Origin: Escherichia coli
GTDB lineage: Bacteria; Pseudomonadota; Gammaproteobacteria; Enterobacterales; Enterobacteriaceae
DNA: 64,000 bases
NCBI RefSeq assembly: GCF_030013595.1
Contig: NZ_CP122768.1
Reading direction: 5' to 3' (one strand)
The position numbers were made by a program. Each line of letters begins with the position of its first letter. Positions within the stretch are counted from its first letter, which is position 1. Shown piece by piece: positions 49,701-52,700 of this stretch.

Positions 49701-52700
49701 CTGGACGGTTTTACATCGCGCGGCTTTGACGATCACAGCAAACTCTTCTTTCCTCAATCTGATGCTCACTTTGTGCCGCCAACGGTAACGGAAGAGGGCA
49801 TCGTCTGGCCGGAAGGACCACGCCCACCGTCGCGTGACTATACGCCGCTGTATGACGAACTACGCCATGAACTGGCGATTGATTTCTTTATTCACGACGG
49901 TGGCGTCGCCAGCGGCTGGGCGATGCAGGCGCAACCGGGCGATAAACTCACGGTGGCAGGTCCGCGCGGTTCGCTGGTGGTGCCAGAGGATTACGCGTAT
50001 CAGCTGTATGTCTGCGATGAATCCGGAATGCCCGCACTGCGCCGCCGCCTGGAAACGTTGAGCAAACTTGCCGTTAAACCGCAAGTTAGCGCGCTGGTTA
50101 GCGTGCGGGATAACGCCTGTCAGGATTATCTCGCGCACCTTGATGGTTTTAATATCGAATGGCTGGCACATGATGAGCAGGCAGTAGATGCGCGTCTGGC
50201 GCAGATGCAAATCCCTGCCGATGATTACTTCATCTGGATAACCGGCGAAGGCAAAGTCGTTAAGAATTTAAGCCGCCGCTTTGAAGCGGAACAGTATGAT
50301 CCACAGCGGGTACGTGCAGCGGCTTACTGGCACGCAAAGTAACTGATATATAAAAAGAAAAAGGCTGACGATTTCTCGTCAGCCTTTGCTATGTCTGGCC
50401 CTGCTGTCTCTTAATTGGTTGTGTAATTAATTGAAATTAAACAGGTAAATGCAATTTATTTTTTATCGATATGCCTTTTTGTATGCCTATTGGGAAAAAC
50501 ACGCTTTCTTCAACAGGGAATAAAAGCCGCTTTTATGGTGTTTTGAAACGGGTTTTAAAATGGCGCTCGTGGTGCTCTCGGGCACTCAATGGCGCTCTGT
50601 GATGTGGCTGGTGGTATGTGGCCGCCATGCATAATGGGGCTGATTTTGTTCATGGCCCGGCAGCGGGTGAGCATTTTTTACCATATTCAGGGTAAAAATG
50701 GGCGAAAAAGTTCATTTCTGGCATGGCCTGAAATGCCACGCAGCCCGCGCCGCGTGTGCTCTTGCCGGGGAAAACGGCGCGGAATAATGACCGCCACCCC
50801 ACCTTATGGCGGGCAGTCCCACGAAATCCCGGTTATTTCCGTTTATTCCCGGATTAATCCCGCCTTCTCCCGCATTCTCCCGGCTGTTCCCGGAATTAAT
50901 CGCCGTGGGGTGGTGGTTATCTGGTGTGGTCGTAGTTCTGCCGTAGTCGTTCACCCTCAGCGCAATGACGCGGTTTTTTAACGCCGCTGGTAACGCAACG
51001 CGGGCAGGTCATGACGTGGCTGATATACGCATCACGGGCAGCCAGCCACGTCGCTGACGGGGCGCACATATCCGCCAGCGCCTGGCCGTTGCTGGTGGTG
51101 TTGTCTTCCGGCCATGTTTCGGGCTGGTGCGCTTCCGGTAAATCCGGTGCAGGTAATGCCCGGATAAACTCACACAATGCATCCGGCAGGCTGAATAACT
51201 TATGCATAAATCTGATGTTCTGAATCGCTGAAAACGTGCGTTTTATGGCGTTTTTTCGTGATTTCTGCGTGTTCTGATGTGCTCATTTCGCTGTATCCCT
51301 TGTGTGGCGCGGGCTGCGCGTGTGTTTCGGTGTTCTTTTTTACCGCCAGAAAACGGTAATCAGGCATATAAACACGGCTGTAAGCCGCGCCGCGTCTGGC
51401 TTCGCGTGATTTTGTGCGTCAAAAAGTGCATTTTTGCCCTTAAAAAGCGTTATTCGTAATTCACTGGTAAATGCTCCGCAGGCCGCGCCATTGCTGGCCT
51501 TTTCGCTATTCTGTGTGGTTTTGCTGTTTAACCCGTTTTGCACACTAAAATTGCCTTGCATCCCGCGCCACGTAAGGGATTGCCGGGTTTTTATGTTGCG
51601 TTTTTTGCCGTGCGTAATATTGTGCAAGTTGGTGGGACTGGTGGGAACTGTGGGAACCGCCTAGAACCACGCGGCTTTCAGTGGTTCCCACCAGTTCCCA
51701 CGTTGGCTTTTTGTGGGAACCGTGGCGGTTATTTTTTGTTCTTTGCGGTTCCCACCAGTTCCCGCAGAGTTCCCACTCAAAAACGAACAATAATCATACT
51801 GATGGTTTTATTATTTACTGATTTATATATGTTTTATTTTTACGGTTCCCACAGTTCCCACCAGTCCCACCACTTTTTCAGTTTTTAAAAACGCAATTTT
51901 TGTGAATTATTCATCAATTGCGAATAACAATGCATTCTGGCCGATGGCGTAAACGCGGTGTTTCTCCCCGTTAACGGAAACGCGTTTTGTGTATCGGCGT
52001 TTCCCGTCCGTGTCGCGGTCAACAATCGCGCCAGCATCGTCAAGACTGGCCGCTATGCGTTTCAGGTCGTAGCCGCTGGCCGCCTCACATAGTGCTTCCG
52101 GTAAAAACCAGTAAACCCGCTCGCCGTTGCTCCCCGGTCGCCACCATCCGGCGCGGGTGCTTACTGGTTCGCTGTATGTGCTGCCCCCTTCAAAGCGTGA
52201 AGCATGGCGGGCGATAAACCCCGCGACGGCCCGGAGTATTTTCACGTCCTCCGATTGCCCCCGCCCACGATAGTCCGCCCACGCATCAAACATCGCTTTC
52301 ACTGCCTCCAGTGCTTCGCCCTGTTTCCACGGCAGAATCCCGGCAGTTATCGCCATTTCCCCGGCCAGTGCGCACAGTGTGAAACGCGCGGCGGCGCGTG
52401 CCTCCTGTCCGGTGCTTACGGGGAATTGTTCGCGCAGTATGGCGTACATATCCGCCAGCGTCTGGCCGTTGCTGTCGGTGCTGGTGGTGTCACTTTCATT
52501 GCGGGAAATCAGCCAGCGCACAAACTCCGGCCCGGCGTGGCCGTAATGGGTAGCCGCATTACCGCGCAGTGTTTCGGCAAATTTCCGGCCTGCTCCCCGG
52601 CGTTCTGTGTCGTTGTCGGGGTTGTGGGGTAGTGCCATTCCGTGAAGACAGTCAAATGCCCCGTAAAGCCGCTGTGCCGGAATATCCAGTAACCGCATTT

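Follow-up and report, generated by a model that had tools for sequence, protein, structure and literature searches.

A phased repeat array in an Escherichia coli P4/PICI-like island resembles the left ends of Mu-type phages and may mimic a packaging signal

An 8.3-kb island of the P4/PICI (phage-inducible chromosomal island) type lies in the chromosome of Escherichia coli (NCBI RefSeq assembly GCF_030013595.1, contig NZ_CP122768.1) between the tRNA-Ile gene ileX (58716–58788) and nfeF; positions are those of the 64,000-nucleotide (nt) stretch that was analysed, here called the window. All genes of the island are on the minus strand, in the order int, a gene for 296 amino acids (aa), AlpA, a C4/isrK-type immunity RNA, ash and icd-like genes, two small genes, a Toprim primase, a DUF927 helicase, the replication origin and a gene for 96 aa. 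The last of these is followed by the subject of this text, an array of short, helically phased direct repeats (50817–50893, minus strand) that resembles the left ends of Mu-like transposable phages; past the array come a small hairpin, some 320 bp of conserved non-coding DNA and an integrase-specific att arm.

Tandem Repeats Finder and a hexamer scan delimit eight units, which on the gene (minus) strand read CCGGGAACAG CCGGGAGAAT GCGGGAGAAG GCGGGATTAA TCCGGGAATAA ACGGAAATAA CCGGGATTTCG TGGGAC; the plus strand of 50816–50905 runs ...aaTCCCGGtt atTTCCGttt atTCCCGGat taaTCCCGCc ttcTCCCGCa ttcTCCCGGc tgtTCCCGGa... Six units are exact TCCCGS on the plus strand (starts at 50827, 50847, 50858, 50868, 50878 and 50888) and two are in-register copies with one mismatch, at 50817 (TCCCAC) and 50837 (TTCCGT); a ninth, degenerate unit (50900–50905, minus strand; TCGCCG on the plus strand), 12 bp from the eighth, is doubtful. 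From start to start the units are 10, 10, 10, 11, 10, 10 and 10 bp apart (Tandem Repeats Finder period, 10), all in one orientation, with neither an AT-rich core nor an inverted iteron set. The rest of the window holds at most two such hexamers per 70 bp on one strand, and by a Poisson estimate about 1e-7 clusters of this size are expected in it. A first-pass annotation of the window had placed about seven copies at 50816–50905, and with six exact and two one-mismatch copies against about 1e-7 expected clusters these coordinates and this count are right or slightly conservative; the array is also, as stated there, distinct from a first array in the island, the origin iterons GTTCCCAC at 51630–51872. 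A cooperatively binding regulator or a second replication or partition site had been suggested as its role. Phasing at one helical turn is what adjacent proteins bound along a single face of the helix would require, which fits the cooperative part of that suggestion; the replication and partition parts did not hold up, for reasons given below.

The array is non-coding, as had been supposed. Three open reading frames (ORFs) overlap it, of 130 and 46 aa on the plus and 80 aa on the minus strand, and RefSeq leaves them unannotated in the annotated genomes examined; Pfam and PHROG searches returned no match for the 130-aa and 80-aa ORFs. Further, in a natural variant (L003) the array is shorter by exactly one 10-bp unit, a loss that would shift every reading frame. 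A coding explanation was rejected on these grounds (annotation, family matches and the natural indel), and the ORFs are best regarded as spurious.

Two structures bracket or follow the array. One is a 16-nt inverted repeat with arms ATGACCGCCACCCCAC (50787–50802) and GTGGGGTGGTGGTTAT (50905–50920), 88% complementary, the right arm of which overlaps the stop codon of the 96-aa gene; GGGGTG/CACCCC elements also border the arrays of three relatives (L163–L165). The other is the small hairpin, CCGCCATAAGGTGGGGTGGCGG then TCATTATT (50791–50812, minus strand), which comes just after the array on the gene strand and looks like a weak terminator; in Escherichia albertii a one-sided change from GGTGGG to GGCGGG converts a G-T into a G-C pair. 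Together with the fact that the GGA-bearing strand is the transcribed strand of the upstream gene, these structures could suggest that the array works as RNA, as a 3′ untranslated region whose nine GGA motifs, closed by the hairpin, sequester a CsrA-like protein. The fold is indeed mildly better than that of shuffled sequences (z = -2.4), the signal coming from the flanking inverted repeat. However, the strict 10-bp phasing suits duplex DNA, the GGA motifs lie outside the hairpin loops, an Rfam scan across the array gave no match, and arrays of the GTGAAAT type in relatives are mostly devoid of GGA; a role as RNA is thus hardly to be expected.

At 91–100% identity the array is present in 30 of 5,426 complete E. 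coli genomes. Some of these carry it in islands between yicC and dinD that have another integrase, another AlpA and another insertion site, and there the homology starts at window position 50494; the non-coding segment between array and att arm (50494–50816) is common to islands with a different integrase and site. An array phased at 10 bp follows the stop codon of the 96-aa gene by 0–110 bp in every enterobacterial relative examined, in flanks that cannot be aligned. Arrays of the CGGGA type occur in E. coli, E. albertii, Tenebrionibacter, Lelliottia, Enterobacter, Citrobacter and one group of Salmonella, the latter with GTGGAATC units as well, and arrays of the GTGAAAT/GCGGAAT type in two further Salmonella islands (L161 and L162). 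Relatives in Pseudomonas have no array, the 96-aa-type gene running straight into int or other genes; the relatives of the 96-aa gene found in IMG/VR are all Pseudomonas-type elements without array and are uninformative. Inspection of other P4-like elements for the array, which the first-pass annotation had proposed, proved fruitful in that relatives do carry it and in that it pointed to mimicry of Mu-like left ends.

Such conservation bears on whether the array does anything at all. The existence of a variant differing by one unit, and of related replicons (L010, L013, L043) in which TCCCGG-type iterons form the origin, would be in keeping with a functionless relic of replication slippage or of an old origin. 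Yet position, strand and phase are kept across genera despite flanks diverged beyond alignment, and the AT-rich core or inverted iteron set expected of an origin relic is missing, which makes a relic very improbable. Two relatives may be mentioned in passing. One from Salmonella (L167; SRR10827760 contig 47) is without the Toprim and DUF927 genes and keeps the origin iterons, a Mor-like gene, a 101-aa gene and the array; the other, a metagenome-assembled genome of Oxalobacteraceae (L014), has nine copies of an 11-bp unit (ACAGCAG...) at +1721..1815 past the helicase stop codon, and this array, about 1.7 kb downstream of the helicase, could be an analogous second array.

The replication module of the island consists of the Toprim-domain primase gene (53726–54769, minus strand; annotation and profile matches), the DUF927 helicase/initiator gene (51907–53745, minus strand), whose product has a weak C-terminal match to a Cch-type helix-turn-helix domain, and the origin (51630–51872). 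The latter comprises three inverted GTTCCCAC iterons, 2+1+3 more (one of them inverted), an AT-rich core at 51776–51842 and three direct copies, the inverted and direct sets lying around the core, and a perfect 30-nt inverted repeat (51630–51659/51843–51872). In nearly all relatives fetched an iteron origin of this layout is found 40–270 bp past the helicase gene, and the iteron changes with the protein. The array does not follow this rule. TGGGA and CGGGA stand at 11:1 at the origin and at 1:6, 1:6, 0:3, 1:2, 0:3 and 0:4 in the array of six lineages; the islands L166–168 have the origin iteron TGTCCCCAC and still CGGGA arrays, and L161/162 still have the origin iteron GTTCCCAC and GTGAAAT arrays. 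A crr-like second origin site, an idea prompted by Pseudomonas relatives with a TGTTCCCGG iteron, was rejected on tests of co-variation and of 5-mers.

A related proposal keeps the initiator as the partner and sees in the array a second cluster of weak iterons for the DUF927 protein, either like crr of P4, an element mentioned in PMC6092414, or as a copy-number (handcuffing) site. The array and the origin iteron GTGGGAAC have the GGGA core in common, the first unit, CCGGGAACAG, and the last, CGTGGGACTG, differ little from variants of the iteron, and GCGGGAAC is among the origin copies; for this likeness of the outermost units the proposal was retained, at low weight. It is generally known that P4 uses ori and crr with shared iterons. 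In the island, by contrast, the array unit differs from the origin iteron systematically and in a conserved manner (the 11:1 versus 1:6 above), the two do not co-vary in L166–168 and L161/162, and relatives in Pseudomonas with the same helicase-origin module have no array. Further, pri-rep-ori alone is sufficient for EcCICFT073 to replicate (PMC6092414). The array is probably not a second origin, contrary to the earlier suggestion, and a weak-iteron cluster of either kind is rather improbable. As for partition, there are no partition genes in the island, so a centromere of the usual kind does not fit either.

The att region bears on a role in excision. The attR core TGGCCCCTGCTG (50397–50408) repeats the 3′ end of tRNA-Ile, which marks attL at the other end of the island, next to the integrase gene (57250–58524, minus strand); in genomes free of the island the junction is at 50398. 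A candidate arm-type repeat of the integrase, ATATGCCTTTTTGTATGCCTA, lies at 50467–50490 and has a second copy near attL (58571–58595). The array is about 410–500 bp from the attR core and outside the segment that varies with the integrase, homology to the sister island between yicC and dinD starting at 50494. In that island the array is 96.5% identical, whereas AlpA (23% over 39 aa, E=0.48) and Int (29% identical) are unrelated, from which it follows, together with the distance to the att core, that AlpA and Int are not the partners of the array; a site for either was rejected for this reason, and binding by AlpA, one of the small island proteins that the first-pass annotation had named as candidates, is not supported. 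The array neither lies in an att arm nor co-varies with recombination directionality factor and integrase. It is true that phased direct repeats are, as is generally known, typical of Xis and Cox sites, and that the array sits at the end of the island opposite int, as do the Xis sites of lambda; nevertheless, it is barely conceivable that it serves in excision as a site for an excisionase/AlpA of the Xis or Cox-box type or for the arm-binding domain of the integrase.

A dispersed 21-nt repeat, GCAGCCCGCGCCACACAAGGG, was also seen in the island, at 51297–51317 (minus), 51558–51578 (plus) and 58649–58669 (minus), and in weaker form at 50739–50760. There are three matches at no more than three mismatches against 0.01 expected, and one copy lies between int and attL.

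The gene directly upstream of the array (50917–51207, minus strand; WP_000549241) encodes the conserved 96-aa protein, which bears the motif ARDAYxSHxMxCxxC...HC; 12 bp separate the stop codon of the gene from the array. Homologues with invariant ARDxY..H..M.C..C...HC occur in E. albertii, Salmonella, Lelliottia, Enterobacter, Citrobacter, Tenebrionibacter and Pseudomonas. An AlphaFold2 (AF2) model (mean pLDDT 74.6) is acceptable for residues 50–96, and no match to it was found among folds in the PDB. Within the gene, 51061–51103 is 88% identical over 43 nt to 52441–52483 in the DUF927 helicase gene (peptide SNGQ(A/T)LADM), a likeness that indicates an earlier partial duplication or recombination event involving both genes.

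If the array is bound by a protein of the island itself, this Cys/His-rich protein is the best candidate; the complex could be regulatory, could be a centromere-like assembly or could act as an adaptor that bridges to helper machinery, the likeness to Mu ends described below being due either to convergence or to the adaptor role. The array always begins 0–110 bp past the stop codon of this very gene, and it is general knowledge that a gene and its own cis site are commonly neighbours, as in rep-ori or parB-parS. Moreover, in L161 and L162 the C-terminal third of the protein (VTHG for VTSG) and the type of array change together. On the other hand, proteins only 47–56% identical to that of the window keep CGGGA and proteins 78–87% identical go with GTGAAAT, so the array type does not track the overall relatedness of the protein; an array is missing downstream of the Pseudomonas homologues, nothing in the family and fold searches suggests that the protein binds DNA, and the lineage-specific matches to two Mu-like phages would be left unexplained. 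Binding by the 96-aa protein is therefore regarded as unlikely, although it deserves to be kept in mind.

The matches to Mu-like phages are as follows. In reference phages picked independently of the database scan described below, phased units of the form sGGGA are located at nt ~30–80 of Mu, D108, B3, BcepMu and Vibrio phage 1.028.O; two other phages have them in looser form, and in D3112 they are weak. The units at the left end of Mu (AF083977, nt 31–80) are TGTATTGATTCACTTGAAGTACGAAAAAAA CCGGGAGGAC ATTGGATTAT TCGGGATCTG ATGGGATTAG, and there are no sGGGA units at its right end. The left end of a second lineage, the Sp18-type phage (LC727881, L262 9005 onward), has the units ...AGGGTTTTAG TGAAAGGAGG TGAAATCACC TGTAAGATAC TGAAATAAAA; their motif is the GTGAAAT variant motif of the Salmonella islands. 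The Sp18 type, present in 248 of the 5,426 genomes, was found via the closest Mor/C homologue (see below) and not via a scan for the GYGRAAT pattern.

Arrays and phages were compared by the best ungapped identity over 40 nt, with p taken from 500 shuffles of the phage segment. The array of the window matches nt 27–66 of the Mu-family left end in 26 of 40 positions (p<0.002) and the Sp18-type end in 23 of 40 (p=0.024). The arrays of L161 and L162 match nt 36–75 of the Sp18-type end in 29 and 28 positions, respectively (p<0.002 each), and the Mu family in 19–21 and 19 (not significant). Every one of these matches lies on phage nt ~27–75. The array thus has in common with Mu-type left ends the phased sGGGA units on one strand (at least three, 10–11 bp apart) and the extended, lineage-specific match; neither an L1-like sequence nor a transposase was found near it, and it is therefore to be seen as a mimic and not as a Mu end. 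No DNA similarity to phage records was found for 50500–51250.

The same kind of array was sought in IMG/VR by an exact-pattern scan for three TCCCGS units at 10-bp spacing, which gave at least 120 loci. Among the 120 matches listed, many arrays are 60–400 bp from the end of the contig, and many are then followed by a conserved motif that resembles the L1 terminus and has the form AGTGTCCCCTAACA; when these loci were clustered by neighbouring ORFs, Mu-like left ends made up the largest group, in which an S24 repressor accompanies Ner and a transposase of the Mu type. Such a transposase or Ner is nearby in at least 26 of the 120 listed loci versus 0 of 80 for the control motif; this control, a scan for the GYGRAAT pattern, returned many unrelated arrays and no Mu-like phage, and was used as a control only. 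Eight of the 120 listed loci are origin iterons adjoining primase-helicases, so the TCCCGS motif alone is not diagnostic.

Mu-like phages thus seem in general to have a 10-bp phased array just inside the L1 site of the left end, with sGGGA units in most of them and GTGAAAT units in the Sp18 type, and this array may be an element recognised by the terminase. Groenen and van de Putte, in 1985, and Harel et al., in 1990, are said to have mapped the pac site of Mu to roughly nt 32–58 of the left end. Between Mu and the Sp18-type phage the small subunit of the terminase is 57% and the large subunit 73% identical, which fits a change of pac specificity. Packaging of Mu starts at the left end, where 50–150 bp of host DNA are attached (PMC12135933). 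The literature searched makes no mention of the 10-bp repeat architecture of Mu-like left ends.

A second link to Mu-like phages is provided by genes of the sister islands, which encode proteins of the Mor/C family; that of the E. coli islands between yicC and dinD is a clear homologue of the Mu late activator C. All 25 of its phage matches are in Mu-like phages or in Shiga toxin (Stx) phages with an inserted Mu-like phage, and the best, at 48% identity, is the C protein of the Sp18-type phage, a Mu-like phage inserted in an Stx2c phage. The position of the Mor-family gene varies among the islands compared (L161/L162, L163–L168 and L002): it is located before the 96-aa gene in L163–168, about 130 bp past the array in L161/162, and past ssb′ and PerC in the E. 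coli islands between yicC and dinD. Capture of an "end + Mor" block of the B3/BcepMu type was considered and rejected; array and Mor gene are in opposite relative orientation.

Co-occurrence was examined as well. Mu-family prophages, detected by blastn with Mu nt 1–2500, are present in 93 of the 5,426 genomes: in at least 4 of the 30 carriers of the array (ETEC1732, its near-clone ETEC1734, UMNF18 and Z0117EC0133) versus 89 of 5396 other genomes, an odds ratio of 9 (Fisher p=0.0016, or p=0.014 with the near-clonal pair counted once, phylogeny being ignored). In these co-resident prophages the left end reads CCGGGAGGAY ATTGGATTAT TCGGGATTTG ACGGGATTAG, with three CGGGA units in the expected place.

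In its other features the island conforms to the PICI/P4-like satellites: an integrase at a tRNA gene, AlpA, a primase-helicase and an origin with two iteron sets around an AT-rich core, which matches the layout described for Gram-negative PICI origins (PMC6092414). Many small islands of Enterobacterales with int, AlpA and primase but without a recognisable packaging module are classed as "Type C" PICIs (PMC11773190). At 55613–55828 Rfam finds C4 (79.6 bits) and isrK (60.7 bits), that is, a C4 antisense RNA of the P4/P1 type, and an a1b1 target in the region 55613–55841 matches below threshold; by the C4 and isrK matches the island has a P4-like RNA immunity region, though the P4 morphogenesis/late genes sid, delta and psu are neither annotated nor were found in it. 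No genes for capsid size or for redirecting terminase were recognised in the island, a P2/P4 cos search gave no P2 cos there, and for lambda cosN there was no significant match in the island, matches in the window being at chance level; one of that chance-level number, 11 of 12 positions (CGGCGGCGACCT), is inside the Toprim gene (54546–54557, minus strand). The 296-aa gene adjoining int (56370–57260) has no Pfam or PHROG match and is at a position where P4-like elements often carry cargo or defence genes.

Taken together, the array may well be a packaging signal copied from a Mu-type phage, a cis-acting protein-binding site that mimics pac; the chances of this are put at about even. The following scenario can be envisaged. 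Once a helper of the Mu/D108 type enters late development, the island would excise by means of Int and AlpA and replicate from its own helicase-origin module. The small terminase subunit of the helper (Mu gp27, possibly with gp26) would bind all eight phased units from one side of the double helix, and the terminase would cut slightly upstream, within the 96-aa gene or close to it. Headful packaging would then proceed through the array towards att and int and fill a Mu-sized head with multimers of the island; titration of terminase by the array could in addition interfere with the helper. Of this, the analysis establishes the array, its conservation, its agreement in sequence and register with two Mu-like lineages and the exclusion of origin, AlpA and Int as partners, while terminase binding, cutting and packaging are inferred.

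Several points weigh against a pac mimic, besides the lack of L1 and transposase and the near-clonal strains noted above. The motif has a short core, and in some DUF927 or P4-alpha-like replicons the origin iterons are themselves TCCCGS arrays; at either end of the array stands a unit that resembles the iteron of the island itself. The segment of the Mu left end that holds the units is equated here with the pac site as the mapping papers reportedly place it. Only in the E. coli sister island is the Mor protein clearly C-like, and this protein is nearer to C of the Sp18-type phage than to that of Mu, whereas the array is of the Mu type; in the island of the window no Mor/C gene or remnant of Mor was found. 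At least 22 of the 30 carriers, and perhaps as many as 26 (about four carrier records not being listed), have no detectable Mu-family prophage, and an 8.3-kb element needs multimers for a head of ~39 kb. The 96-aa protein could be the true binder of the array, or an adaptor. Finally, the evidence is wholly computational.

More broadly, and with somewhat less confidence than an even chance would merit, one may think of a hitherto unrecognised family of satellites that parasitise transposable Mu-like phages by means of multi-unit pac mimics of at least two specificities (CGGGA of the Mu/D108 type and GTGAAAT of the Sp18 type), in which the fuller members have a C homologue in the role that delta plays in P4, and in which the phased GGGA array reflects a general element of Mu-like terminases. 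If the array is a pac mimic, no island family had been seen before to travel with transposable phages; the literature searched held no report of satellites with a Mu-like, transposable helper. Such a mimic would account for the mobility of one group of "Type C" PICIs, and the phased array past the 96-aa gene would be a simple sequence marker for predicting helpers. As packaging of the Mu type is headful and in one direction, the array of an unexcised island would send packaging into the neighbouring chromosome; in the window it would run towards nfeF, nfeR and aer and so amount to lateral transduction. The comparison also suggests, whatever the role of the island, that what Mu-like terminases recognise is a phased GGGA array.

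Satellites that carry a packaging signal of their helper are well known, and the known helpers are P2-like, lambdoid/HK97-like and ICP1-like phages and some others. The island would be comparable to the satellites with a helper cos or pac, such as P4 with its cos or SaPIbov5 and EcCICFT073 with theirs, if, as a small island with int, AlpA and primase, it carries the signal of its helper downstream of the replication module and is packaged as multimers in full-size heads (PMC6092414). Those satellites differ in that their helper is a cos phage and not a transposable, headful-packaging Mu-like phage, and the island has neither P2 cos nor lambda cosN. P4 crr and the origin iterons of PICIs and SaPIs are likewise short direct repeats near a primase-helicase gene, and a GGGA/TCCC core is common to the array and the true origin at 51630–51872, but the array unit is unlike the iteron of that origin and varies independently of it, and the units all have one orientation, without an AT-rich core. 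The Cox-box and Xis arrays of P2 and lambda and the centromeres of the ParR/ParG type are phased direct repeats for a protein filament on one face of the DNA as well; in contrast to these, the array lies at a distance from the att core, does not depend on AlpA or Int, and is not accompanied by partition genes. From the pac region of Mu, the attL spacer between L1 and L2, the array differs in having eight to nine units instead of four, and in being placed, without L1 or transposase, inside an integrase-driven, self-replicating island and not at the end of a transposon. With that region it shares the sCGGGA core, the 10-bp register, the orientation on one strand and the 26 of 40 identical positions with nt 27–66, and the second type of island array matches the Sp18-type phage in like manner.

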